Both the position numbers and the translations under genes were made by a program. 64,000 nt of DNA from an uncultured Phycisphaerales bacterium (GTDB lineage: Bacteria > Planctomycetota > B15-G4 > CAYZWU01), in NCBI GenBank assembly GCA_964464495.1, contig CAYXGI010000002.1, forward strand, positions 115,927-179,926, read 5' to 3'. Below, in pieces: positions 14,776 through 53,020 of this stretch. Below the pieces are notes generated by a model, which saw only the letters and a program-made list of their open reading frames with translations, did not search any database and was not told where the DNA came from. Position 1 is the first letter of the stretch; each line of letters begins with the position of its first letter.

Positions 14776-15546
14776 TCAAAGTGATTTTCCGAGACGCCGC
14801 TCGAGGTCGGGACGGTACTTGCGGCTCAGCCTGAGCTTTTCACCGTTTCGCAGCACGACCATGAACTCGTTGTTGAAGGTCGGCAGGAGCTCTTTTATAT
14901 CGTCGAAGTTCACCATTGTCGATCGGTGAATGCGCACGAACCGATCGAGAGGCAATCGCCGCTCCATGCCGCTCATCGTCTCGCGCATGAGGTAGAGATC
15001 GTCGCGCGTGTGAATGCGCACGTAGTTGCCTGCCGCCTCGATCCACACGATCCGGTCGGCGGGAACAAAAATGACCTTGCCTTCCGTCTTGACCAGGAGT
15101 TTCTCCCGCGCGCGCTGATCGGCTTTCATGTTGTTGATCAGCGCGACGAGTTCGGTCCTCGCCCGGCCCGCGCGCGCCTGGTCGACCTGCTTGCGGGCTC
15201 GTTCGAGGGCCGTGGAGAAACGCCCGCTGTCGAAAGGTTTGAGAAGGTAATCGAGTGCGTGCACCTCGAAGGCTTTCACCGCGTACCGGTCGTAGGCCGT
15301 GACGAAAACCACTGACGGCAGGCGGTCCTGGTCGAGAGCGGCGAGGACATCAAAGCCGTCGACGGCAGGCATCTGGACGTCGAGAAAGACCAGGTCGGGA
15401 GCGAGCCTCTCGATCGCATCGATCGCCTCGTTCCCGTTCTCGCACTCGGCCAGAATCTCGAAGTCGCTCTCATGGCCCAGGAGCGTACGAATCCGCTCCC
15501 GCGCCAGGGGTTCATCATCAACGATGATCGCTCTGATTCGATCCAT
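14776..15546 (-). CDS. LytTR-family response regulator (receiver plus LytTR DNA-binding domain).
   Basis: MDRIRAIIVDDEPLARERIRTLL...DLVFLDVQMP is a receiver domain. The C-terminal LytTR domain reads ...IVWIEAAGNYVRIHT.... The ORF track extends it to a TTG at 15600 that overlaps the HK stop. The ATG at 15546 gives the canonical MxxIRxIIVDDE start. The alternative start is uncertain. Confidence 0.85.
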   Translation of the reverse strand: MDRIRAIIVDDEPLARERIRTLLGHESDFEILAECENGNEAIDAIERLAPDLVFLDVQMPAVDGFDVLAALDQDRLPSVVFVTAYDRYAVKAFEVHALDYLLKPFDSGRFSTALERARKQVDQARAGRARTELVALINNMKADQRAREKLLVKTEGKVIFVPADRIVWIEAAGNYVRIHTRDDLYLMRETMSGMERRLPLDRFVRIHRSTMVNFDDIKELLPTFNNEFMVVLRNGEKLRLSRKYRPDLERRLGKSL

Positions 15547-15596
15547 GTTATCTCGTCCAACCGTCATTTCAGTACGCCCGCGCCCCCCCGGCCCGC

Positions 15597-16721
15597 TCAA
15601 GAAAGACTAACAGTGTGAAAGGGAATCGTCATCTGCACGACAAGGCCGCCCCCCTCGGGTCTTCTGAATGCGAGGCGGCCTTCCGAACCGTAGAGCTGTT
15701 CCAGACGGGCCCGCGTATTGGCCAGACCGGTCCGCGAGACAGGGCTGTCGCCGCCCTCGGGAAAACCGGGCCCGTTGTCGCCCACCTCGATCTGGAGCGC
15801 CCCGTTCCGCTTTCTGGCGTGCAGAAATATCCGTCCCTGGGACACGATCTTGCTGATGCCGTGATTGACCGCGTTCTCGACGATCGGCTGAAGAATGAGG
15901 TTCGGCACAAAAGCGCCCTGGGTTTCGGGCGCGATGTCGAAGTCGACCACGAGGCGGTCGCCGAACCTGATCTGTTCGATGTCGAGATACCGTTTCAGAA
16001 AGTCGAGCTCCTGGCGCATCGGCACCTCGTGCTCGTCGTTCGCATCGAGAGAGAGGCGGAGAAGGTCGCTCAGCTTGATGATCATCGTCTCTGCAGCGTC
16101 GATGTCGCGGTGCATGAGCGTCGAGATGGCGTGCAGCGTATTGAAGAGAAAGTGAGGGTGCAGCTGCATCTTGAGCATGTCGAGCTGAGCGCGCGCGAGG
16201 CGCACCTCGAGCTGGCTCGCCCGCACCTCGCGTTCGCGATAGAGCCGGTAATAATCGAGCCCGTGGAAGGCGGCCGCAAAGGCCAGATAGGTGATGCATC
16301 CCATGAGTAGGGGGCCGATCCCGATCGGCATGATCTCCATTCCGAAATTACTCTTCATCAGAACCGACTGGATGAGCCTGACCGCTTCGCCCACGACCAC
16401 ACCGCACAACGTGTGGACGGTCAAAGGCAGTCGCCACGCGCCCTTCAGGATCGTGAAGCGCCGGCAGAGGATCAACATGAGCGGCGTCGCCGCAATCCAC
16501 GGACTCCACCAGCAGAAAGACTTTTGCAGCTCGAGCAGGTAGTCGCAATCCTTGTCGCCCCGCGTGAATGCCTCGTAGTAGGTCGTGGCGAAACCGACGG
16601 CCAGAACCGTACAGCAGAGAGAGACGAGACCGAGAGCGATGAGGTGGGCTCTGACGGAGATACTCCGGCGGGGTGCTTCTTGGTCGACACTTTCGGGCAT
16701 GTGATTCATGACGCGACTCAT
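15597..16721 (-). CDS. Sensor histidine kinase of the His_kinase (PF06580) / LytS-AlgZ type: 4 TM helices plus HATPase.
   Basis: LKMQLHPHFLFNTLHAISTLM is the PF06580 H-box. The ATPase has ...IVENAVNHGIS...DNGPGF.... It overlaps the response-regulator gene by 4 bp. The ORF track runs to 17561, but the upstream 280 aa are the shadow of the plus-strand gene. The ATG at 16721 has GGCGAGGAGATAAC immediately upstream (AGGAGA SD, 6-nt spacing). Confidence 0.85.
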   Translation of the reverse strand: MSRVMNHMPESVDQEAPRRSISVRAHLIALGLVSLCCTVLAVGFATTYYEAFTRGDKDCDYLLELQKSFCWWSPWIAATPLMLILCRRFTILKGAWRLPLTVHTLCGVVVGEAVRLIQSVLMKSNFGMEIMPIGIGPLLMGCITYLAFAAAFHGLDYYRLYREREVRASQLEVRLARAQLDMLKMQLHPHFLFNTLHAISTLMHRDIDAAETMIIKLSDLLRLSLDANDEHEVPMRQELDFLKRYLDIEQIRFGDRLVVDFDIAPETQGAFVPNLILQPIVENAVNHGISKIVSQGRIFLHARKRNGALQIEVGDNGPGFPEGGDSPVSRTGLANTRARLEQLYGSEGRLAFRRPEGGGLVVQMTIPFHTVSLS

Positions 16722-16862
16722 GTTATCTCCTCGCCTTGCCGGGGGCAATCTGCATCTGTGGATTGAATCTTGCGGCACTGTGGGAGGAAGGGTAGTCTGG
16801 TCGATCACCCGATCGGCAGCGATCGGGACCCGGGCGAGAGAACCATTCACAGAGGATGCATC

Positions 16863-18131
16863 ATGAACACTCCCTTCGTTTCGGCGCTCCTTGCGGCGAG
16901 TTTCTTTTTCGCGAACCTTTCCATCTCGTGCGAAGAGCCGATCGAACAGGAGCTGGTCGATCTCTGCAGTCAATGGCTCGACGATTACTCGAATGGCCGT
17001 GCCGACCGCGTGGAGGCCCGCTTTGCGCCGGGCGCCGTGGTCGCCATCGATGCGGCGGACAGTGACACGCAGAGAGTCATGTCTGCCGCTGACTTCATGG
17101 GCCTCATGCGCAAGAGCCTCGAAGAAGGAAAAACCTTCCGCGAGTGGCTCACCGGTAAACCAACGGTGCTCGTCGATCACAAGATCGCCACGGTGTGGGC
17201 GCCCTACGCCGTCGAATCGCCGGGCCGGAAAGCGACCGGAGTCGATGTATTCCAGTTCGTGTACGTCGACGGCGCATGGAAGATCGTGAGCCTCTCCTAC
17301 ACGAACAGAAAAATCGCCCCCAAGAGCTCCGCGTCCCCCACCGATTCGCGTGAGCCGAATCCCGCCGAACTCGGCCGCGTCGAATGGAGTGGCGATCTCG
17401 ACGCCTCTCTCGAGAAAGCCAGGGCGACGGGGAAGCCGGTGCTCCTTCTCTTCCAGGAAATTCCCGGGTGAGCCACGTGCGTGCGCTTCGGTCAGAAGCC
17501 CCTCTCGCACCCCTTGCTCGTCGATGCCATGGAAAATGAGTTCATCCCGGTGGCTGTCCACAACAACCGCGAGGGTAAGGACGCAACCATTCTCGTGCGT
17601 TTCGGCGAGCCGGCCTGGAACAACCCGGTCCTTCGTTTTCTCGACGCAGAGGGCCGGGACATCGTGCCGCGCCGCGATCGGATCCGGTCGTCGGAAGACG
17701 TGGCGACGCGGCTTGTCGAGGTGCTTGTCGCCGCGGGCCGCGAGGTTCCCGATTACCTGCGGCTCGCGCTACGCGAGCTCGAGTGCGCCTCGACGGACCT
17801 TGCGATCGCGCCCGGACAACCGGTTCCGATCGGATCGAAGATCAGAGACGCAAAGCCGTCGGACGACAAGTACAGGTTCAAGGAGACCGCCTTGCGTTTC
17901 GTCCCCCTCACACCGATGCAGGCGACCGAGATCAACGCATCCCTCGGAAGGAAAGAGGATCCTCTGCACTGGCTCAGCCCGAGGCAGAGAGTGCTCGCGA
18001 AAAAGATCGAAGCCGCTATTAAAAACAAACCAAATGTTCTCGACCATCTCGAGCCTCCCAGGTCGACCGATGGCCTGGCTGCCTACGAGAAAGAACTTCT
18101 GGCTGCTCTCGCGGCCGTTGCCGAAAAATGA
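16863..18131 (+). CDS. Candidate selenoprotein: a secreted NTF2-like domain fused to a thioredoxin-like domain, with an in-frame UGA (17469-17471) at the redox motif (U-A-T-C).
   Basis: ORFs 16770..17471 and 17481..18131 are in the same frame and are separated only by a TGA. A conserved thioredoxin_7-like block spans the TGA: WSGDLDASLEKARATGKPVLLLFQEIPG-[TGA]-ATCVRFGQKPLSHPLLVDAMENEFIPVAV. The downstream ORF begins only with GTG and has no SD. The probable true start is ATG 16863 (MNTPFVSALLAASFFFANLSISC signal), with AGAGGA upstream. A SECIS-like hairpin lies at 17485-17499. Confidence 0.55.
17472..17500 (+). promoter_or_regulatory. Putative bacterial SECIS element: stem GCUUC/GAAGC with apical loop GGUCA, immediately 3' of the in-frame UGA.
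   Basis: After UGA there are 13 nt of spacer, then GCTTC (17485-89), GGTCA (17490-94) and GAAGC (17495-99). The loop G-G-U sits at +19/+20/+21 from the UGA. As I recall it, this is the same position and loop sequence (GGUC) as the E. coli fdhF SECIS. Confidence 0.45.
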
Positions 18132-18137
18132 AACACC

Positions 18138-19058
18138 ATGCGCACAATCGGTAAGCTGGATAGTGAAGAGCAGGCCAGAACCCTCGGTGACTTTCTTCTC
18201 GTTGAAGGCATCGAAAACGAGATCGATCAAGATGGCGACCGGTCGTGGACGATCTGGGTTCATTCCGAGGACCAGATCGACAGCGCGCGCCAGATCCTCG
18301 ACCGGTTCGCGCGTAATCCCGATGCAGCCGAGTTCTCGAGTGCGGCCTCGACAGCGCGCGCTCTCAAACGCCGGGAGAAACGAAAGACGGCACGCTCGCG
18401 CACGCGCTTTGTCGACGTGCGCACCACCTGGTCATCGGCCACCGTACTGAGACCGGGTCCCCTGACACTCGGCTTCATCGGGGCGAGTCTCGTCGTGGCC
18501 GTGCTCTCCCGGCTCGGCGGCAACGAGGATGTCGTGCAACACCTCGCCATCACCAGCCACGAGGTGGCGGGCGGCTACATCAGATGGATCAAGGGCCTGC
18601 GCGAGATCATGAGCGGAGAGGTCTGGCGCCTCTTCACACCGATCTTTCTTCACTTCACGATCCTCCATCTGCTCTTCAACATGCTCTGGCTCAAGGACCT
18701 GGGGAGCATGATCGAGTCGCGACAGGGATCATGGCGTCTCACGGCGCTCATCGTCGTTATCGCCGCTCTCTCCAACGTGGGGCAGTACTACATGGAAGGC
18801 CCCCGGTTCGGCGGCATGTCGGGCGTCGTCTACGGTCTGCTCGGGTATATCTGGATTCGGGGCAAGTTCGATCCCGCCTCGGGCTACTTTCTCCCGCGGT
18901 GGATCATCGTGATGATGATGGGTTGGTTTGTTCTCTGCTTCGTCGGCGTCATCCCGAACATCGCCAACACCGCTCACGGCGTGGGGCTTCTCGTGGGTGC
19001 GATCTGGGGATTCATTTCTTCCGGACGACTTCGGTCTTCCGGAAGACTCTGGAAATGA
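18138..19058 (+). CDS. Rhomboid-family intramembrane serine protease (GlpG-like), with an N-terminal cytoplasmic domain.
   Basis: GMSGVVYGLLG has the GxSG catalytic Ser. AHGVGLLVGAIWG has the catalytic His. There are 6 TM segments. It starts 6 bp after the selenoprotein-candidate stop. Confidence 0.85.
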   Translation: MRTIGKLDSEEQARTLGDFLLVEGIENEIDQDGDRSWTIWVHSEDQIDSARQILDRFARNPDAAEFSSAASTARALKRREKRKTARSRTRFVDVRTTWSSATVLRPGPLTLGFIGASLVVAVLSRLGGNEDVVQHLAITSHEVAGGYIRWIKGLREIMSGEVWRLFTPIFLHFTILHLLFNMLWLKDLGSMIESRQGSWRLTALIVVIAALSNVGQYYMEGPRFGGMSGVVYGLLGYIWIRGKFDPASGYFLPRWIIVMMMGWFVLCFVGVIPNIANTAHGVGLLVGAIWGFISSGRLRSSGRLWK

Positions 19059-21301: not shown

Positions 21302-22252
21302 TCAATCGCCGAAATGCAGGTGAAGCAGGTCAGCGCGCCGGCCGGCGCCTATGGTGACCACGAAAAGGTTGTCGTAGTCGGCATCGTCGATGGTGATTGT
21401 TTCCGAGACGCCGAGTGCGCCGAGCAGCGCGGAAACGGTATTCGAATGGCCGCAGACAAGGACGCTCTGCCCTCTGTGCTCGCTCAAGATGGTCTGGGCG
21501 AGCTTTTTCTCCTTCCCGGCATCGACAACGATCGGTTTCACGCGTGCGCCTCCGGCCGAGGGTGCGATCGTCTGCTGTGTGCGCCCATACTGTGTCGCGT
21601 AGACCGCATCGAGCGCGATCGGCTCGAGCATACGGCCGAGTCGCGCGGCGCGCTTCCACCCGGCCGGTGTGAGGCCGGGATCATCGTCGCGGCCCGACAG
21701 ATCCTTCTCGGCGTGCCGCACGACGAAGATCCGCGTCACCCTCTCTGTCGATTCATCGGGTCCCTCGACAGCCATCATGCGCACCACATCGCGCAGGCAG
21801 GCGTTGGGAATGGGAACGGTGAGATTATACTGACAGATCCGCCACACCCCATCCAGCTTGCGCATCACGCCCGATCCGCGCCATTCGCCATAGCCTTCGC
21901 TGTCGAGTTCTTCGTCGAACCACGCCACGTTGCCGTCCGCGGACAGGGAAAGGGATCTGTCCCTCGGTTTGAAGGTCCAGGCCGAGTCGCCCTCGAACTG
22001 ACGCTCTGCCCAGGCCCTGAACTCGGCCACGCTCCACCTCTCCTCGGGATCGGATCCGAGAAACACCGCGTCGGGCGCGAAATGCCCGAAGTAGCGCTCC
22101 TCGTCGGCGCACGCCGCGGCATCATGAAAATCATCGAGCACGGCGCACGCGGCATCGGCGTCGTCGAGCGGAAGGGCTACCGCCCCCCACAAGAACGCCG
22201 AGACAGACAGAGTTGTTACCAGAGCAGCATGGAGCAGAATATTTTTCGGCAT
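21302..22252 (-). CDS. Secreted two-domain protein: NTF2-like (SnoaL/DUF4440-type) N-domain fused to a histidine phosphatase (SixA/PGAM superfamily) C-domain.
   Basis: It has a signal peptide. RIFVVRHAEK is the RHG motif, and ...LVCGHSNTVSALLGAL is the histidine-phosphatase C-terminal His motif. Confidence 0.7.
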   Translation of the reverse strand: MPKNILLHAALVTTLSVSAFLWGAVALPLDDADAACAVLDDFHDAAACADEERYFGHFAPDAVFLGSDPEERWSVAEFRAWAERQFEGDSAWTFKPRDRSLSLSADGNVAWFDEELDSEGYGEWRGSGVMRKLDGVWRICQYNLTVPIPNACLRDVVRMMAVEGPDESTERVTRIFVVRHAEKDLSGRDDDPGLTPAGWKRAARLGRMLEPIALDAVYATQYGRTQQTIAPSAGGARVKPIVVDAGKEKKLAQTILSEHRGQSVLVCGHSNTVSALLGALGVSETITIDDADYDNLFVVTIGAGRRADLLHLHFGD

Positions 22253-22326
22253 CGTATCACTCCGAAAAAAGGCGAGATGCCCTTTGCGGCAGCCCGTTGG
22301 AAAAGTGCTTCATCTTCCGGTTCTCA

Positions 22327-23583
22327 CTAGGCCCGGCCGCAGCAAACCTTGAACTTGCGCCCGCTGCCGCAGGGGCAGGGATCGTTGCGCCCCACCTTGC
22401 GGCCGCCCGATTCGGCTGAGCGCCGGATCCGATCGAGCTCCGCCTCTCGAGCTTCGATCTGTTCGCGTTTCCACTTGCGGGCCAGCTCCTGAAGCGGCTC
22501 GTCGGCGTGGCGGAAAAAGATCTGGAACGATTCGCAGAGATGGCTCAGATCCCCTTGCGCGCCCGCCACGCGGTCGCGCGTGCATCCGCCGCGGCAGTAT
22601 TTCAACCAGCGGCAGTTCTGGCAAGCCTTGGCAAGCCGCGATTTCATCAGTCCAAACTCGTTCTGTCTCTCGCAGTTCAGCAGATCGCCGAGCTCGTCGT
22701 GAAGCACATTGCCCAGCCGCCACTCGGGCTCGACGTAGAAGTCGCACGAGTAGACATCGCCGTTGTGCTCGACCACCACGTAGGCGCCGCATTCGGACAG
22801 CAAGGTACACTCGGGCGGCTGCAGTCCGGCATAGACGTGAAATACGGAATCGAAGAACCGCACCGATGTGGTGGGAACACCGTTGTCGAAATCGTCGATC
22901 CAGAGATCGAAGAGGGTGCAGAGAAAAGCGCCGAACCTCTCAGCGGTCACCCGATCGGGCACGTCGTCGCCGCCGCTGCCGATTCCAGTATCCACGAGAG
23001 GGATGAACTGCATGTAGTTCAGCCCGAGTTCCTTGTGAAAGGTGTAGATCTCCTCGGCGAAGACGACGGCATAGTCGTTGACCACGGTGAGCGCATTGAC
23101 CGCCACGCCCTCATCGAGCATGAGGCGCGCCCGATCGACGACCCGGTCCCATGACCCTCGCCCACCCTTCATCTTGCGGTACCGGTCATGCACGTGGGCG
23201 GGGCCGTCGATCGAGAGTCCGACGAGAACGTTGTACTCTGCCAGAAAGCGCGCCCACTCCTCGTTGATCAGAATCCCGTTGGTCTGGAGGCCGTTTCCCA
23301 CCGTGTGCGAACGGCCGTGTTTCTTCTGCAGTTCAACAGCCTTCTCGAAAAAGGGGAGTCCCATCAGCGTCGGTTCTCCCCCCTGCCATCCAAAGGAGAT
23401 CTGCCCCGGTGCGTGCTTCATGGCCTGGCGCACCATCGCCTCGAGAATTTCCTCGCTCATGCGGTGCTGCTCGCCCGCCGCGAAGAGCCCGGCTTTCTCG
23501 AGGTAAAAGCAGTAGGCGCAGGCCATGTTACAGTCAGGTCCCGCCGGTTTGATCAAAATCGAGTTGAGAGGTCGTCGTTTCAT
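22327..23583 (-). CDS. Anaerobic sulfatase-maturating enzyme (radical SAM/SPASM, AtsB/ChuR-like) with a C-terminal SEC-C zinc-ribbon motif.
   Basis: CNMACAYCFY is the CxxxCxxC radical-SAM cluster. The SPASM cysteines are ...CGAYVVVEHNGDVYSCDFY... and ...CQNCRWLKYCRGGCTRDR. The extreme C-terminus DPCPCGSGRKFKVCCG is a SEC-C motif. Confidence 0.8.
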   Translation of the reverse strand: MKRRPLNSILIKPAGPDCNMACAYCFYLEKAGLFAAGEQHRMSEEILEAMVRQAMKHAPGQISFGWQGGEPTLMGLPFFEKAVELQKKHGRSHTVGNGLQTNGILINEEWARFLAEYNVLVGLSIDGPAHVHDRYRKMKGGRGSWDRVVDRARLMLDEGVAVNALTVVNDYAVVFAEEIYTFHKELGLNYMQFIPLVDTGIGSGGDDVPDRVTAERFGAFLCTLFDLWIDDFDNGVPTTSVRFFDSVFHVYAGLQPPECTLLSECGAYVVVEHNGDVYSCDFYVEPEWRLGNVLHDELGDLLNCERQNEFGLMKSRLAKACQNCRWLKYCRGGCTRDRVAGAQGDLSHLCESFQIFFRHADEPLQELARKWKREQIEAREAELDRIRRSAESGGRKVGRNDPCPCGSGRKFKVCCGRA

Positions 23584-23634
23584 GGGACTCGTGAATTTCC
23601 TTGACTCAATGACACTGTCCGCGACGCCCTACGC

Positions 23635-44921: not shown

Positions 44922-46772
44922 ATGCAGCTCACTTCTCTCGACTGGATCGTCATCGCTGTTTGCCTTGCCGTTGCTTTCGCGCCCGCCGTCTTTTTCGCGC
45001 GGCGCGCCGGAAAGGGAACGGCCGAGTTCTTCGCGTCGGGCCGCGCCGCGCCGTGGTGGCTGATCGGAACGTCGATGGTGGCGACCACCTTCAGCACCGA
45101 TACGCCCAACCTGGTCACCAACTTCGTGCGCACCAACGGTGTCTCCTACAACTGGGTCTGGTGGGCGTTCCTGCTCACCGGCATGATGACCGTATTTTTC
45201 TATGCCCGGCTCTGGCGCCGCTCCGGGGTGCTCACCGATCTCGAGTTCTACGAACTGCGCTACTCGGACAAGCCAGCCGCCTTCGTGCGCGGCTTCCGGG
45301 CGGTCTATCTCGGCCTCTTCTTCAACTGTTTCATCATGGCATCGGTGACCCTCGCCGCGGTCAAGATCGCCAATGTGATGCTCGGCTGGGATCGACTCCA
45401 GACCGTCCTCGTATGCGGCAGCATCTGCATCGTCTTCTCGGCCATGTCGGGGCTCTGGGGCGTGCTCGCCTCGGACATCATCCAGTTCGTCATCGCCATG
45501 GTGGGTGTTTTCGTCGCGGTCTACTTTGCGCTTGATCACGATTCGGTCGGCGGCCTGTCAGGCATGATCGAGAAGATCGATGTCAAGACTCTCAGCATAC
45601 TGCCTGATTTCGACAACTGGGAAATAACCCTGACCGTTCTGATCATCCCCCTCGCCGTGCAGTGGTGGTCGGTCTGGTACCCGGGCGCCGAGCCGGGCGG
45701 CGGCAGCTACATCGCCCAGCGCATGCTGGCCGCCAAGGACGAGAAGCACGCCATGGGCGCCACCCTCTGGTTCAATATCGCCCACTACGCGCTGCGGCCC
45801 TGGCCGTGGATCATCGTGGCTCTCTGCTCGATCCTCGTCTTTCCCGAGCTGACCGACATCCAGAAGACCCTCCCCCATGTGAGCGATGACCTGATCGGCG
45901 ACGACCTCGCCTATCCGGCCATGCTCACCCTTCTGCCCCACGGCCTGCTCGGCCTGCTCGTCGCCTCCCTGCTCTCGGCCTACGTGTCGACCATGTCGAC
46001 CCATCTCAACTGGGGGGCGTCCTACCTGGTGAACGATTTCTACCGCCGTTTTCTCCGAGGCGACGGGACGGAGCGCCATTATGTCTGGGTGTCGCGCCTG
46101 GTGACGGCCGGGCTCATGGTGGTGGCGGGAAGCGTGATGTTCGTTCTCGACACGGCCAAGGACGCCTTTGAATTGATGATCTCCATCGGTGCGGGCACGG
46201 GCGCGATCTACCTTCTCCGGTGGTTCTGGTGGCGGATCAATGCGTGGAGCGAGATCGCCGCCATGATCTCCTCTTTTGTCATCTCCATGGGTTTCTTCTG
46301 GTACAACAAGACCCTCCTGTCCAGCGGACCGGGACCGCTGGGCGACTGCTTGAACGACTGCGGCCTTTTGAGGCTGTCGAGTGAGGGTGTTGTCCAGGGC
46401 GTCAAGTTACATATCTCGCTGATCTCCACCGTCCTCGTCACCACCGCGGTCTGGATCGTGGTCACCTTCGTGACCCGTCCCGCGAACCGCGAGACGTTGC
46501 TCAGGTTCTGCCGACTCGTCAAGCCCGCCGGTCCGGGATGGCGCGCGATCCGCAAGGAGGCCGGTGTCGAAGCTTCTCCCGACAGTCTTCCCCAGGCCTT
46601 TCTGGGATGGGCGCTCGGATGCGTGCTCGTCTATTCGGCTCTCTTCGGCACGGGATGTTTCATTTACGGCCACAAGGCGCAGGGCGCGGTTTGCGCCGTA
46701 CTGGTTGTCGCGAGTAGCCTCTGGCTCTGGCGGTTGCTGACTGCCATGTGGCGTGAGAAGCCGGCTGAATAG
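44922..46772 (+). CDS. Sodium:solute symporter family (SSS/SLC5-like) transporter.
   Basis: About 14 TM helices. ...GRAAPWWLIGTSMVATTFSTDT... is an SSS N-terminal pattern. The ORF track starts at GTG 44901. The ATG at 44922 has GAAGGG 7 nt upstream. Confidence 0.75.
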   Translation: MQLTSLDWIVIAVCLAVAFAPAVFFARRAGKGTAEFFASGRAAPWWLIGTSMVATTFSTDTPNLVTNFVRTNGVSYNWVWWAFLLTGMMTVFFYARLWRRSGVLTDLEFYELRYSDKPAAFVRGFRAVYLGLFFNCFIMASVTLAAVKIANVMLGWDRLQTVLVCGSICIVFSAMSGLWGVLASDIIQFVIAMVGVFVAVYFALDHDSVGGLSGMIEKIDVKTLSILPDFDNWEITLTVLIIPLAVQWWSVWYPGAEPGGGSYIAQRMLAAKDEKHAMGATLWFNIAHYALRPWPWIIVALCSILVFPELTDIQKTLPHVSDDLIGDDLAYPAMLTLLPHGLLGLLVASLLSAYVSTMSTHLNWGASYLVNDFYRRFLRGDGTERHYVWVSRLVTAGLMVVAGSVMFVLDTAKDAFELMISIGAGTGAIYLLRWFWWRINAWSEIAAMISSFVISMGFFWYNKTLLSSGPGPLGDCLNDCGLLRLSSEGVVQGVKLHISLISTVLVTTAVWIVVTFVTRPANRETLLRFCRLVKPAGPGWRAIRKEAGVEASPDSLPQAFLGWALGCVLVYSALFGTGCFIYGHKAQGAVCAVLVVASSLWLWRLLTAMWREKPAE

Positions 46773-49359: not shown

Positions 49360-49564
49360 CTCTATACGTGAAATTTACGTAAGCGCTTACCTTTTATTTA
49401 AAATTATTGAGATTCCGTCGCAGGGACCGCTCGCTGAGCGGGGGCATTGCGAGTCGGCGGAAAGATGATAAGATTCAACTTTTGCGCCCTTGGAACCAGA
49501 GATTGGTCTCGCCCCCCCGATCAGCGCGGGCAGGGACCTGTCGAATCCCGAACGAGGTCACACG

Positions 49565-52069
49565 ATGAAACGAATGGTCTGCTTCGCAATTCTGTGCACT
49601 CTTTTCTGCACCCCCTCTGCCCTGCGCGCCGACGACGACGCTCCGGAAGCTGATGGGACGATCACTTTTTCCCAGGGGCTGGTCACCGGGCCTGCGGGCC
49701 GCTATGGCCGATCGGCGATCCACTCCGATCCCGTGGAGCACCAGCTCGTCACGGCGACGTGGGTCACGCCCCGCGCGGGCGACGGTATCAAGGATACGGT
49801 CCGCAAGACCGATCTCACCTGGACGGCGATCGACGCGGACGAGAAGGGCTGGTTCCAGCACAAGGCGCTCCGCGGCGGTTACCTTCACCTGTCGGTGGAA
49901 AGCGCCGAGGAGACGGTCATGATCCTCCACGCCAGCGGCCACAGCCTCGTCTACGTCAACGGCGTGCCGCGCGCGGGCGATGTCTACAGCTACGGGTGGA
50001 TCGAGCACCCCGTGCGCCTCGTCGAGGGCCGCAACGACTTTCTCTTTCGTGTTTCGCGCGGCCGCGTTCGGGCCGAGCTCGTCAAGCCTGAGCGCAGCGT
50101 GGCTTTCACGAAAAAGGACATGATCCTCCCCCACCTGCTCATCGGCGAGGAGGAACCTCTTTGGGGCGCCGTGCGCGTGATCAACGCGCGGGCCGAGACC
50201 CTCTCTTCTTTGAAAATTCGTTGCGAGGTGGACGGCGCCCTTCGCCTGTCGACCGCGGTCGGCGTTATCGGGCCGATGACGACACGCAAGGTCGGTTTCC
50301 GGATTCCGGCAGCCACGCCTCGCAAGGCGTCTTCAGACGAAAAAACAGACGATGCGAAAGCAAAAGCGACGATCGTTCTGATCGATGCCGCAACCGGCTC
50401 CCAGCTCGACAGCCTCGAAGTCGACCTGTCCAGACTCTCGCCCTCAGGCAACCACAATCGCACCTTCATCAGCGCCATCGACGGCAGCGTCCAGTACTAC
50501 AGCGTGACGCCGGGTACGATCGAGGATGAATCAGCCGCCAAGCCCGCCCTCTTTCTCTCGCTCCACGGCGCTTCGGTCAAGGCCGAGGGGCAGGCGCGCA
50601 GCTACAAGGCCAAGGAGTGGGGCCATGTGGTGGCGCCCACGAACCGGCGGCCTTACGGATTCGACTGGGAAGACTGGGGGCGGCTCGATGCCATGGAGGT
50701 CCTCGCTCTCGCCGAGGAACGTTTCGACACCGATCGGACGCGCACCTACCTGACCGGCCACTCCATGGGCGGACATGGCGTGTGGCACCTGGGCGCCACC
50801 TTTCCCGCGCGGTTCGGCGCAATCGGCCCGAGCGCGGGCTGGTACTCCTTCTGGTCGTACGGCGGCAAGAAGAAGGACGGTCATGGCTCGAAGATCGAGG
50901 AGCTCTTCGCGCGGGCGAGCAATCCAAGTGACACACTCGCCCTTTCGCGCAACTTTCTCCATCACGGGGTCTACATCCTGCATGGCGACAAGGACGACAA
51001 CGTGCCTGTCGAGCAGGCGCGCTTCATGCGCGAGCACCTCGCCAAGTTCCACGCCGACTTCGCCTACTACGAACGGCCCGGCGCCGGCCACTGGTGGGGC
51101 GGACCGTGCGTCGACTGGCCGCCCCTCTTCGACTTCCTCGATAACCACACGATCCCCGACAAGAAACAGGCGAAGAGTGTCGAGTTCAGAACCTTCAATC
51201 CGGGAATCTCGTCCCGCTCCCACTATGTGTCGATCGAAGCGCAGGAGAAAGCCCTCGACCTGAGCAGGGCCAAGATCACCCAGGATGTGAAGAAGAGGTC
51301 CTTCACGGGCGAGACGGAAAACGTGGCGATCCTGGCTCTCGATCTCGATCAACTCGATCAGGGAGAAGAGCTGTCGGTCGAACTCGATGGAATCAAGGTG
51401 GAAGAGCTGGAGATCCCCGCGGGCGCCGACCGCATCTGGCTCGCCAACGGGAACGACGGGTGGCGACAAATCGAACGGCCCGATCTTACGAACAAGGGCC
51501 CCCACCGCTACGGCACCTTCAAGGACGCCTTCCGCAATCGAATGGTCTTCGTCTACTCCACGCTGGGGACGCAAGAAGAAAACGAGTGGTCTTACGCCAA
51601 GGCGCGCTTCGATGCTGAAACATTCTGGTACCGGGGCAACGGTTCGATCGACGTGGTCGCCGACAGCGCCTTCGATCTCGAAGCCGAGCCCGACCGGAAT
51701 GTGATCGTCTACGGCAACGCGGACACCAACGCTCTCTGGCCGGCGCTTCTCCCGACGAGCCCGGTCCAGGTCGGACGCAATGCGCTCCATGTGGGCACGA
51801 AGGTTTTCGAGGGCGACGACTTCGGTTGTTATTTCGTCCGACCGAGACCGGGGAGTCCGACGGCCACTGTGGGAGTCGTGTCGGGCACCGGCCTCCGTGG
51901 GATGAAAACCGCCAACATGAACATGTATTTCACCTCCGGATCGGGTTTTGCAGATCTTCTCGTGTTCAGCGCCGACATGCTGGTTGGCCATTTCGACGGG
52001 GTCAAGTGTGTGGCCTACTTCGGAATCGACTGGAGCCTCGAAACGGGCGAGATGGCCTGGCTCGATTGA
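49565..52069 (+). CDS. Secreted multidomain alpha/beta-hydrolase (S9-peptidase/esterase-like).
   Basis: The signal peptide is MKRMVCFAILCTLFCTPSALRA. YLTGHSMGGHGVW is a GxSxG nucleophile elbow. LHGDKDDNVPV carries the Asp, and ...GAGHWW the His. GAGG lies 7 nt upstream of ATG 49565. The ORF track's 49490 start is an upstream extension. Confidence 0.65.
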   Translation: MKRMVCFAILCTLFCTPSALRADDDAPEADGTITFSQGLVTGPAGRYGRSAIHSDPVEHQLVTATWVTPRAGDGIKDTVRKTDLTWTAIDADEKGWFQHKALRGGYLHLSVESAEETVMILHASGHSLVYVNGVPRAGDVYSYGWIEHPVRLVEGRNDFLFRVSRGRVRAELVKPERSVAFTKKDMILPHLLIGEEEPLWGAVRVINARAETLSSLKIRCEVDGALRLSTAVGVIGPMTTRKVGFRIPAATPRKASSDEKTDDAKAKATIVLIDAATGSQLDSLEVDLSRLSPSGNHNRTFISAIDGSVQYYSVTPGTIEDESAAKPALFLSLHGASVKAEGQARSYKAKEWGHVVAPTNRRPYGFDWEDWGRLDAMEVLALAEERFDTDRTRTYLTGHSMGGHGVWHLGATFPARFGAIGPSAGWYSFWSYGGKKKDGHGSKIEELFARASNPSDTLALSRNFLHHGVYILHGDKDDNVPVEQARFMREHLAKFHADFAYYERPGAGHWWGGPCVDWPPLFDFLDNHTIPDKKQAKSVEFRTFNPGISSRSHYVSIEAQEKALDLSRAKITQDVKKRSFTGETENVAILALDLDQLDQGEELSVELDGIKVEELEIPAGADRIWLANGNDGWRQIERPDLTNKGPHRYGTFKDAFRNRMVFVYSTLGTQEENEWSYAKARFDAETFWYRGNGSIDVVADSAFDLEAEPDRNVIVYGNADTNALWPALLPTSPVQVGRNALHVGTKVFEGDDFGCYFVRPRPGSPTATVGVVSGTGLRGMKTANMNMYFTSGSGFADLLVFSADMLVGHFDGVKCVAYFGIDWSLETGEMAWLD

Positions 52070-52213
52070 CCTGTCGGCGCGGGCGCGATCGACGTACCGA
52101 TCGTCCCGCCCAGAGAGCGGTTCGTCACCCCTGACCTCGAGGCCGTCACAAGAGGCGTGACTTCCCGGCTATCGGTCCGGCTAGATGGCGCTCAACAAAT
52201 TGGAGGGCATGCC

Positions 52214-53020
52214 ATGAAACTGCCGCTGTCAGAGAACTTTTTGCTTCTCCTTTCGATCGTGTGCGTCATCGTGGGCGCTGGGTGCGCGGGAGACAGGGAC
52301 AGCGAAACGCAATCGCTTAAGCTGTCGATCGTCTACAACAACGAACCCTTCGACGAAGCGTTGAAAACAGAATGGGGATTCTCCTGTCTCATCGAAGGCT
52401 TAGATCAGACCATCCTCTTCGACACCGGGGGTGATGGAGAGACACTCCTTTCCAACATGGATACGATAGGTATCTCACCGGGCAGCGCCGACCTCGTCGT
52501 CCTTTCCCATTACCACGGCGATCACACAAGAGGCCTGGAGAAAATGCATGAGCACAATCAGGCCATGATCGTTTACATGCCAGAGTCCTTTCCCCAGGAC
52601 TTTCAACAGGCGGTAAAGGACACGGGCGCCACTGTGGAGCCCGTGACCGATCCCCTCGTCCTTTTCGAAGGGGCTTGTTCCACCGGCGAAATGGGCAATT
52701 CGATCATCGAGCAGTCGCTCATTCTCGACGCTCCGTCAGGTCTCGTGATCGTGACCGGCTGCTCCCATCCGGGAATCGTCAAGATCGTCCGGCGCGCCCG
52801 CCAGGTGGAGGACAAGGAAATCGATCTCGTGATCGGCGGCTTTCACCTGGGGCGGAAGCCCGACGACGAGGTAGGCGACATCATCAAGGAACTGAAGGAT
52901 CTCGGCGTGAAGCGGGTGGCTCCCACCCACTGCACGGGCAACCGGGCGATCGAACTCTTTCGAGAGGCGTGGGGAGACGATTTCATCGACGCCGGGCTCG
53001 GGCGGGTGATCGAGGTTTGA
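52214..53020 (+). CDS. MBL-fold metallo-hydrolase, lipoprotein.
   Basis: LLLLSIVCVIVGAGCAG is a lipobox. VVLSHYHGDHTRGL is the HxHxDH motif. GGAGGG lies 6 nt upstream of ATG 52214. Confidence 0.75.
   Translation: MKLPLSENFLLLLSIVCVIVGAGCAGDRDSETQSLKLSIVYNNEPFDEALKTEWGFSCLIEGLDQTILFDTGGDGETLLSNMDTIGISPGSADLVVLSHYHGDHTRGLEKMHEHNQAMIVYMPESFPQDFQQAVKDTGATVEPVTDPLVLFEGACSTGEMGNSIIEQSLILDAPSGLVIVTGCSHPGIVKIVRRARQVEDKEIDLVIGGFHLGRKPDDEVGDIIKELKDLGVKRVAPTHCTGNRAIELFREAWGDDFIDAGLGRVIEV

Follow-up and report, generated by a model that had tools for sequence, protein, structure and literature searches.

An in-frame UGA, almost certainly a selenocysteine codon, joins two annotated reading frames into one probable selenoprotein gene of an uncultured Phycisphaerales bacterium

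Two unnamed reading frames of an uncultured Phycisphaerales-type bacterium very likely form a single gene, located at positions 16863-18131 of the 64,000-nucleotide stretch of DNA analysed in this work (the window). The gene would encode an exported selenoprotein homologous to the proteins of the NCBIfam family NF041383, and an internal UGA would be recoded by means of a downstream hairpin. Judging from the comparison of homologous sequences, the in-frame TGA at 17469-17471 is almost certainly a real selenocysteine (Sec) codon. The selenoprotein family, its redox motif and the recoding mechanism have all been described already, and the window gene is a mis-annotated, oddly truncated family member. 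What is new is a small clade of proteins carrying an N-terminal SnoaL/NTF2-like domain, among which the window copy is alone in lacking the MsrA-like core.

Results

The ORFs 16770..17471 and 17481..18131 lie in one shared frame and are divided solely by the TGA at 17469-17471, a point on which the initial annotation proved right. Translation through this codon starts from the ATG at 16863, placed 6 nt downstream of a Shine-Dalgarno-like GAGGA (16852..16856), and yields 422 residues, the UGA being codon 203. The frame is closed by a second TGA (18129..18131), which the sequence, the translation and the stop-codon usage of the window mark as the true terminator of the gene. All these features, as those of the gene described below, reside on the + strand. 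TGA is the stop codon used most in the window, where it ends 17 of the 24 Pfam-supported ORFs. The window has been scanned for other genes carrying in-frame TGAs, and only ordinary gene boundaries were retrieved.

The protein begins with a hydrophobic segment, MNTPFVSALLAASFFFANLSISC (16863..16931), which is probably a Sec-type signal peptide; orthologues and Cys homologues also begin with a hydrophobic helix. A putative SnoaL/NTF2-like domain follows (residues ~30-146, 16950..17300). Pfam scores of the window protein are sub-threshold (SnoaL_4, 19.4 bits, cut-off 24; Lumazine_bd_2, 20.5 bits, cut-off 22.1), and those of the orthologue L001 exceed both cut-offs (25.0 and 23.3 bits, respectively). 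The sole notable PDB profile match of the domain is to a designed cortisol-binding protein (positions 4-122, E 0.004), the scaffold of which we take to be NTF2-like. A 422 aa secreted protein with an NTF2-like N-domain had been predicted at the outset, and a signal-like N-terminus and a probable domain of this type are indeed seen.

The next domain is of the Thioredoxin_7 type (residues 174-262, 17382..17648). The Pfam match (PF13899, 39.1 bits, cut-off 27) covers profile positions 1-83 of 83 and runs across the TGA, which lies inside a Thioredoxin_7-like block as originally proposed. The putative redox motif U-A-T-C (17469..17480) is part of the sequence IPG-U-ATC (17460-17480), which matches the motif (V/I)PG-[U/C]-x-T-C found in the thioredoxin (Trx)-like domain of the family, the corresponding column being shared by 149 distinct family sequences. 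The initial annotation had placed the UGA where the family would feature W-C-x-x-C; the U-x-x-C reading stands, and the W-C-x-x-C motif has to be replaced by PG-[U/C]-x-T-C. In the AF2 model of the Cys homologue P0001 (pLDDT 93.9) the CxxC caps the N-terminal end of helix alpha-1 in the Trx fold, C65 being directly before helix 66-74, and an MsrA-like domain follows. The N-terminal half of the model is matched by Foldseek to the Trx-like domains of DsbD-gamma, DsbH and ERp19/AGR, and the C-terminal half aligns to MsrA (4u66, E 2e-6), in line with PDB profile matches to MsrA at ~1e-7.

The readthrough product matches NF041383 with an E value of 5.6e-73, and the NCBI name of both the family and the homologues is "VPGUxxT family thioredoxin-like (seleno)protein, type 2". 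When Cys is put in place of Sec, the window protein scores 246.1 bits, in two separate stretches, against a curated whole-protein HMM cut-off of 275 bits; for the orthologues the values are 360.8 (L001) and 364.3 bits (L003). The window score falls below the cut-off because the MsrA-like middle module, distinguished by the conserved M-x-C-[FY]-W-x-G-E, has been deleted. When the window protein is compared with L001, L003 and the consensus of the family, two in-frame deletions of 63 aa and 11 aa flank an E-C-A-S island (17781..17792), and the alignments show that they took out ~74 residues of the MsrA-like beta-alpha core, the FAMHCFWEGE motif included. Downstream of the island there is a C-terminal helical region (LRFVPLTPMQA...WLSPRQ, 17793..18128), a remnant of the MsrA-like half shared by the family according to alignment and HMM. 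The conserved tract SDxK...LRxLPLTPxQA...WLSPRQ within it (residues 333-376) is the second stretch detected by the HMM. The family is listed as "OS_HP5" among the known prokaryotic selenoprotein families in a 2026 review (PMC13188914). This name is found neither in the 2007 Olavius paper, which has OS_HP1-3 only, nor in the 2008 GOS paper.

The search for Cys-containing orthologues suggested with the initial annotation gave a clear answer. At the codon aligned to the UGA, 76 distinct homologues carry Cys (TGC or TGT), and 73 distinct forms, the window one and 72 others, carry TGA; neither any other residue nor any other stop has been found in this column. Synteny with the window locus is shown by L001/L007, which come from a Phycisphaerales MAG, and by L003, and these loci feature TGA at the same codon. 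In these two orthologues TGA has been retained at dS values of about 0.7-1.0, and dN/dS ranges from 0.09 to 0.16 across both sides of it. In the comparison of the window with L003 (dS about 0.8), dN/dS amounts to 0.09 before the TGA and to 0.16 after it. The codon is thus maintained in a gene under purifying selection. Along the window branch, the Trx domain has an omega of 0.12 and the N-domain one of 0.24. For the C-terminal remnant omega is ~1, a very imprecise estimate (bootstrap interval 0.27-5.35), and by this measure part of the window gene may be decaying.

A candidate SECIS element resides immediately downstream of the UGA. Setting the U of UGA as +1, the upper hairpin GCUUC-GGUCA-GAAGC spans +17 to +31 (17485..17499), and its apical loop (17490-17494) corresponds to G22, G23, U24, C25 and A26. 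A lower stem may be formed by GUGCG (17477-17481) and CGCAC (17506-17510), to give a predicted extended SECIS (17477..17510, -11.9 kcal/mol). The lower stem is kept in L003, and has one mismatch in L001, the hairpin of which carries a wobble-compatible A-to-G change. The bSECIS consensus model (PMC13188914) calls for a loop of 3-9 nt, an upper stem of 4-16 bp, a G in the first two loop positions, a spacing of 16-37 nt and an MFE <= -7.5 kcal/mol. The window hairpin conforms to it, having a 5-nt loop, a 5-bp stem, a GG loop start, 18-nt spacing and, with the lower stem, -11.9 kcal/mol. The model is permissive, and generic bSECIS-like hairpins of at least 5 bp, found at 39% of random window positions, are uninformative; the z-score of the fold (-0.4 to -1.1) is not significant either. 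Rfam searches detected neither SECIS nor other families, in the whole window at gathering thresholds and at 17400-17600 at E values up to 10.

The register of the hairpin is far more selective. Hairpins of at least 5 bp with GGU at +22-24 in the loop occur at 0.045% of positions, and follow two of the 1850 TGA trinucleotides. The second of them, at 45927 on the minus strand, is spurious, being located in a non-coding frame full of stops. Among family members, 30 of the 73 Sec forms share the register of the window hairpin; of these, 27 have a pair at stem level 6 and 28 at level 7, and the level-5 pair is variously G-C, C-G, A-U and U-G, as observed in covarying stems. Sec forms have longer best hairpins than Cys forms (medians of 7 and 5 bp, respectively; p = 2e-10), and more often use GGU as the Gly codon of the loop (41/73 versus 11/76, p = 1e-7). 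The rule that the window hairpin satisfies is satisfied also by 14 of the 76 Cys forms. As far as sequence can tell, the window hairpin is a member of a SECIS class covarying across the family, its 5-bp stem being weak when taken alone.

A gene encoding a rhomboid protease (18138..19058, + strand) starts 6 nt downstream of the selenoprotein gene, is probably co-transcribed with it, and is syntenic in all the orthologous loci. On the other side, a LytTR response regulator and His_kinase pair (14776..16700, - strand) is divergently oriented, and its synteny is conserved within the clade only. The linkage of the rhomboid and LytTR genes to the selenoprotein gene is confined to this clade, and no neighbours conserved family-wide, such as DsbD or MsrB, have been found. 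The Sec machinery was searched for in the window and ~16 kb flanks, roughly 80 kb of genome. No tRNA-Sec was identified by ARAGORN in the window and 31 related loci, and neither SelA, SelB nor SelD was detected by Pfam in ~20 large window ORFs, or in the gene lists of the flanks. A complete Sec machinery is known in some Planctomycetes (PMC4807772).

Discussion

The alternative explanations for the in-frame TGA find limited room in these data. Decoding of the UGA without selenium is very unlikely. It could result from a reassigned code (UGA read as Trp or Gly) or from near-cognate readthrough inserting Cys or Trp; alternatively, Sec may have been lost and the gene may be a fresh pseudogene. 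The degenerate state of the window copy, with its deleted MsrA-like core and C-terminal omega of about 1, and the failure to see Sec machinery in the window and ~16 kb flanks, fit with this hypothesis. Against it are the low omega that the window branch shows in the Trx domain, and the maintenance of a hairpin in the SECIS register of the family. Reassignment of the code is in turn ruled out by the use of TGA as terminator of most Pfam-supported ORFs, and of the selenoprotein gene itself.

Even less probable is that the TGA is a true stop, separating a SnoaL-domain protein of 202 aa from a 216-aa protein with its own start, or marking a nonsense mutation that has disrupted the gene. All public gene calls (NCBI, JGI, ENA, Logan) divide the locus in this manner, with a first ORF of 202 aa and a second of 216 or 205 aa, both unnamed. 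A GTG is indeed found 9 nt past the TGA, at 17481, and the region surveyed for Sec machinery was, again, negative. Yet the split would separate strand beta-1 of the Trx fold from helix alpha-1, and the 9 nt preceding the GTG encode the x-T-C of the invariant family motif. Cys occupies the exact position of the TGA in the 76 homologues mentioned above, and the orthologues retain the TGA with a downstream dN/dS of 0.1-0.16. The GTG and an internal ATG at 17526 are the only starts available to the downstream ORF, and neither is preceded by a clear Shine-Dalgarno sequence, as had been noted for the GTG in the initial annotation. The existence of two independent genes is rejected, because part of the motif precedes the GTG, and constraint persists downstream of the TGA. 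That TGC or TGT was turned into TGA by a sequencing or assembly mistake has a negligible probability and is refuted, although TGA is one base away from a Cys codon, by the identity of the 1269 bases of the gene, TGA included, in 8 independently assembled contigs from at least 6 samples (JGI, ENA, Logan), and by the same TGA in two diverged orthologues and 70 other family members.

Reading the UGA as Sec, the protein would be organized, from the N- to the C-terminus, into a signal-like segment, a SnoaL/NTF2-like domain, a Thioredoxin_7-type domain featuring Sec203-Ala-Thr-Cys206, and the C-terminal helical region. By analogy with established bacterial Sec biology, the codon would be recoded by SelB and Sec-tRNA(Sec), with SelB plausibly recruited by the +17 to +31 hairpin, which carries G23 and U24 in its apical loop. 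All other TGAs in the region, including the terminator of the gene, would be read as stops. Once exported, the protein may work as a periplasmic selenol/thiol oxidoreductase by means of the Sec-x-x-Cys pair. In typical family members the fusion of Trx-like and MsrA-like domains suggests that the former recycles a methionine-sulfoxide-reductase-like module. Following the in-frame loss of the MsrA-like catalytic core, the Sec-Trx function and the NTF2-like domain alone would be expected to remain in the window protein. One may speculate further that the gene encodes a neofunctionalised SnoaL/NTF2-like and Sec-thioredoxin selenoenzyme of a marine Phycisphaerales clade. According to this scenario, which is rather unlikely, the NTF2-like pocket offers a small hydrophobic substrate to Sec-x-x-Cys, the MsrA-like core has been shed in the window genome, and the protein does not act as reductant of a methionine-sulfoxide-reductase-like domain, and maybe operates along with the rhomboid protease and the LytTR two-component system.

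Merging the two unnamed ORFs into one selenoprotein gene corrects the annotation of the locus, and flags an uncultured Phycisphaerales-type bacterium as a likely user of selenocysteine. NF041383 proteins tolerate both the gain (NTF2-like) and the loss (MsrA-like core) of domains. At least two SECIS registers are in use in the family, and this information could help to tune selenoprotein finders.

The window hairpin had been likened, for position and loop sequence, to the SECIS of E. coli fdhF, and the comparison holds. The minimal fdhF element corresponds to nt 15-31 after the U of UGA, and has G23 and U24 in the loop (PMC8659212). Both elements are directly downstream of the UGA within the coding sequence, end at +31, and carry G23/U24 in the apical loop, in the window case as part of GGUC at +22 to +25. 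In contrast to fdhF, the window upper stem is of 5 bp only and starts from +17, its 5' arm (G17-C21) is fully paired and lacks a bulged U17, the loop is the 5-nt GGUCA, and an internal loop (3 x 6) sets the lower stem apart.

Similarities to periplasmic thiol-disulfide oxidoreductases and to Trx-MsrA fusions are more distant. To DsbD-gamma, DsbH, ERp19/AGR and MsrA, sequence identity is only 14-22%. A further comparison is with the Sec-containing MsrA of Clostridium oremlandii; in NF041383 proteins Sec belongs to the Trx-like CxxC, not to an MsrA active site. The window copy departs from Trx-MsrA fusions as well, since the MsrA-like catalytic core is wholly absent. Within NF041383, the window protein differs from the other members by the loss of the middle module, and by the extra SnoaL/NTF2-like domain (~140 residues), a fusion confined to its own small clade of Phycisphaerales type. 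What it has in common with them is clear homology in both the Trx-like domain and the C-terminal region, a PG-[U/C]-x-T-C motif in which one and the same codon specifies either Sec or Cys, a hydrophobic N-terminus, and the hairpin register adopted by ~40% of the Sec forms of the family.

Reading frame and Sec/Cys pairing

A single frame runs on the forward strand from the ATG at 16863, preceded by a Shine-Dalgarno-like GAGGA (16852-16856), to the TGA at 18129-18131, and is interrupted only by the TGA at 17469-17471. As the initial annotation had read, a mechanical ORF list splits this frame in two (16770..17471 and 17481..18131), the second ORF starting from a GTG, and translation through the lone TGA gives the 422 residues proposed. 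The 9 nt separating TGA and GTG encode A-T-C, within the invariant PG-[U/C]-x-T-C motif (U, selenocysteine, Sec). In public collections (NCBI, JGI, ENA, Logan) the gene is stored as two unnamed proteins of 202 aa and of 216 or 205 aa (16863-17468, 17481-18128). An artefactual origin of the TGA is ruled out by the identity of all 1269 bases in eight contigs, independently assembled from JGI, ENA and Logan data. A variant genetic code is ruled out as well, TGA being the terminator of 17 of the 24 Pfam-supported ORFs of the window, and of the selenoprotein gene itself. A lone TGA at 52067 also separates, in one frame, an S9 peptidase/esterase ORF (49472-52066) from a metallo-beta-lactamase ORF (52070-53017); since the two are called separately, with a gap, in the comparison locus L169 (834 and 268 aa), the site is apparently a normal boundary between genes.

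The TGA had been placed inside a Thioredoxin_7-like block, and the Pfam domain indeed spans the in-frame stop, matching residues 174-262 (39.1 bits, cut-off 27). Loci were read from GTDB species representatives (80) and metagenome contigs (72), plus six orthologous loci. The anticipated U-x-x-C redox motif occurs, as PG-[U/C]-x-[T/N]-C, in 149/149 distinct family sequences (L008-L158). Homologues do carry a cysteine aligned to the UGA: the motif codon is TGC or TGT in 76 distinct sequences (Cys forms) and TGA in 73, window included (Sec forms), the metagenome contigs having been picked with a TGA-specific pattern, and Sec forms of the genome set being findable only via a second search pattern, located away from the motif codon. 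No codon other than TGC, TGT and TGA occupies the position in the genome set, and protein conservation 3' of it is intact throughout, one spurious match excepted. The same TGA is found in two diverged syntenic loci, one represented by L001, L002 and L007 (uncultured Phycisphaerales MAG), the other by L003-L006. Between the window and L003 dS is ~0.8, and dN/dS in the thioredoxin segment is 0.09 before the TGA and 0.16 after; three-taxon estimates of omega (dN/dS) for the window branch are 0.12 for the thioredoxin domain and 0.24 for the N-domain. The Sec/Cys pair, the TGA of the orthologues, the identical contigs and the standard code support the candidate as a thioredoxin-fold selenoprotein; the two unnamed ORFs of public gene calls are almost certainly one selenoprotein gene. 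No tRNA genes were found in the window, and neither SelA, SelB nor SelD among its large ORFs or in ~16 kb of flanks; full Sec machinery is present in some Planctomycetes (PMC4807772).

Family membership

Searching with the readthrough protein, Sec replaced by Cys, retrieved 390 database homologues, several of which carry the NCBI name "VPGUxxT family thioredoxin-like (seleno)protein, type 2", though 'VPGUxxT' is not a literal match to the family motif. The window protein matches NCBIfam NF041383 with 246.1 bits (E 5.6e-73), under the curated cut-off of 275 because its MsrA-like core is deleted; L001 and L003 stand above (361 and 364 bits). A 2026 review of the prokaryotic selenoproteome lists NF041383 ("OS_HP5", motif VPGU) among known selenoprotein families, and attributes OS_HP5 to Zhang and Gladyshev 2007 (PMC13188914). 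That name was found neither in the text of the 2007 paper, where only OS_HP1-3 are named, nor in the 2008 GOS paper, and the primary description of the family was not traced. The NF041383 match, the NCBI names and the review listing imply that the kind of protein initially proposed is real and already catalogued. Judged by homology, the window gene is a member of a curated, published selenoprotein family, and only two features are new: an NTF2-like fusion specific to its clade and, in the window genome, a missing MsrA-like core.

Domain organization and neighbourhood

An added N-terminal domain, probably SnoaL/NTF2-like (in the window protein, sub-threshold Pfam matches to SnoaL, SnoaL_4 and Lumazine_bd_2, residues 30-146), occurs in the window protein and its two orthologues, and nowhere else in the family sample. 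The hydrophobic N-terminus suggests that the window protein may be exported. For the Cys homologue P0001, AF2 modelling (pLDDT 93.9) gives a thioredoxin fold, its CxxC positioned at the helix alpha-1 N-cap, similar by Foldseek to DsbD-gamma, DsbH and ERp19/AGR, and a second domain for which the Foldseek alignment is to MsrA (4u66 from Clostridium oremlandii, E 2e-6). The family profile matches MsrA chains by sequence at ~1e-7, and Pfam PMSR the motif region FAMHCFWEGE. On these grounds a typical type-2 member seems to be an exported protein fusing Trx(U/CxxC) to an MsrA-like module, in which the thioredoxin-like domain would recycle the MsrA-like module.

Relative to its orthologues, the window protein lacks 63 and 11 residues through two in-frame deletions (17780|17781 and 17792|17793), by which the MsrA-like module loses its beta-alpha core and its conserved Cys motif (FAMHCFWEGE); both deletions are present in 8/8 independent contigs with the window gene. 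In the C-terminal remnant (17793-18128) omega is ~1 on the window branch vs 0.26 and 0.44 on the others, only a hint of relaxed constraint or drift after the deletion given the very wide bootstrap interval (0.27-5.35). The ENA metagenome ERZ23498668 holds both the deletion-bearing species (window; scaffold_45, L160/L163) and a related species with an intact ~500-aa gene (scaffold_2116, L001).

Upstream lie divergent LytTR response regulator and histidine kinase genes (14776-16700, minus strand); downstream, a rhomboid protease gene (18138-19058, plus strand) starts after 6-7 nt across clade loci, and is probably co-transcribed with the selenoprotein gene. This synteny is found in all clade loci (L001, L003, L007, L152) and not elsewhere in the family, for which no neighbour conserved throughout was found. 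A few kilobases farther downstream, on the minus strand, the window encodes a second protein with a SnoaL domain, here SnoaL_3 in fusion with a histidine phosphatase (21305-22309; the SnoaL_3/His_Phos_1 gene is also in L001 and L003), and a radical SAM/SPASM protein whose C-terminus bears a SEC-C motif (22330-23628).

A probable SECIS element

The hairpin GCUUC-GGUCA-GAAGC (17485-17499, plus strand) spans +17 to +31, the U of UGA being +1, with loop G22 G23 U24 C25 A26; including a predicted lower stem (GUGCG/CGCAC, 17477-17481 pairing with 17506-17510), the element folds at -11.9 kcal/mol. It conforms to the bacterial SECIS consensus (PMC13188914) in its 5-nt loop, 5-bp stem, G at loop start and 18-nt spacing; Rfam gave no match at the hairpin or over the window. 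Taken alone, the hairpin is weak evidence for a SECIS, since, besides the Rfam result, 39% of positions drawn at random from the window satisfy a generic rule of at least 5 bp, z-scores of the fold lie between -0.4 and -1.1, and a 5-bp stem in this register is also reached by 14/76 Cys forms. When GGU is required at +22-24, inside the loop of a hairpin with at least 5 bp (the strict register), 0.045% of positions qualify, a rarity owed in part to conservation of a Phe-Gly dipeptide (UUC GGN). The only other window TGA with such a hairpin, at 45927 on the minus strand, is antisense to a sodium:solute symporter gene; several stops interrupt the frame of this TGA, and it is thus taken as a chance match.

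Comparative sequence evidence, in raw counts uncorrected for phylogeny, is stronger. When the best perfect hairpin whose loop falls within +16 to +40 is taken for each sequence, the median stem is 7 bp for Sec and 5 bp for Cys forms (Mann-Whitney p = 2e-10), and GGU is the loop Gly codon in 41/73 Sec vs 11/76 Cys forms (Fisher p = 1e-7), or 35/56 vs 3/33 in high-GC subsets. The window's register is common to 30/73 Sec forms; stem levels 6 and 7, at which pairing is not demanded by the selection rule, are paired in 27/30 and 28/30 of these, and level 5 shows compensatory pair types (G-C 10, C-G 13, A-U 6, U-G 1). The hairpin is kept within the window's own clade, L001 having one wobble-compatible A-to-G change. 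A second register has loop GUC at +29-33, as in GCUCAG-GUC-CUGAGC (L090, L096, L104, L123, L126 and further loci, at +25 to +39 from the TGA with loop +31-33); here a Ser codon AGC/AGU completes the stem, UCN being common among other Sec forms.

Decoding of the UGA would follow the usual bacterial route through a SECIS. The fdhF register given in the initial annotation is right: the minimal SECIS of E. coli fdhF is placed at nt 15-31, U17 forming a bulge and G23 and U24 lying within the apical loop (PMC8659212). The window hairpin lacks the bulged U, but holds G23 and U24 in its loop as fdhF does.
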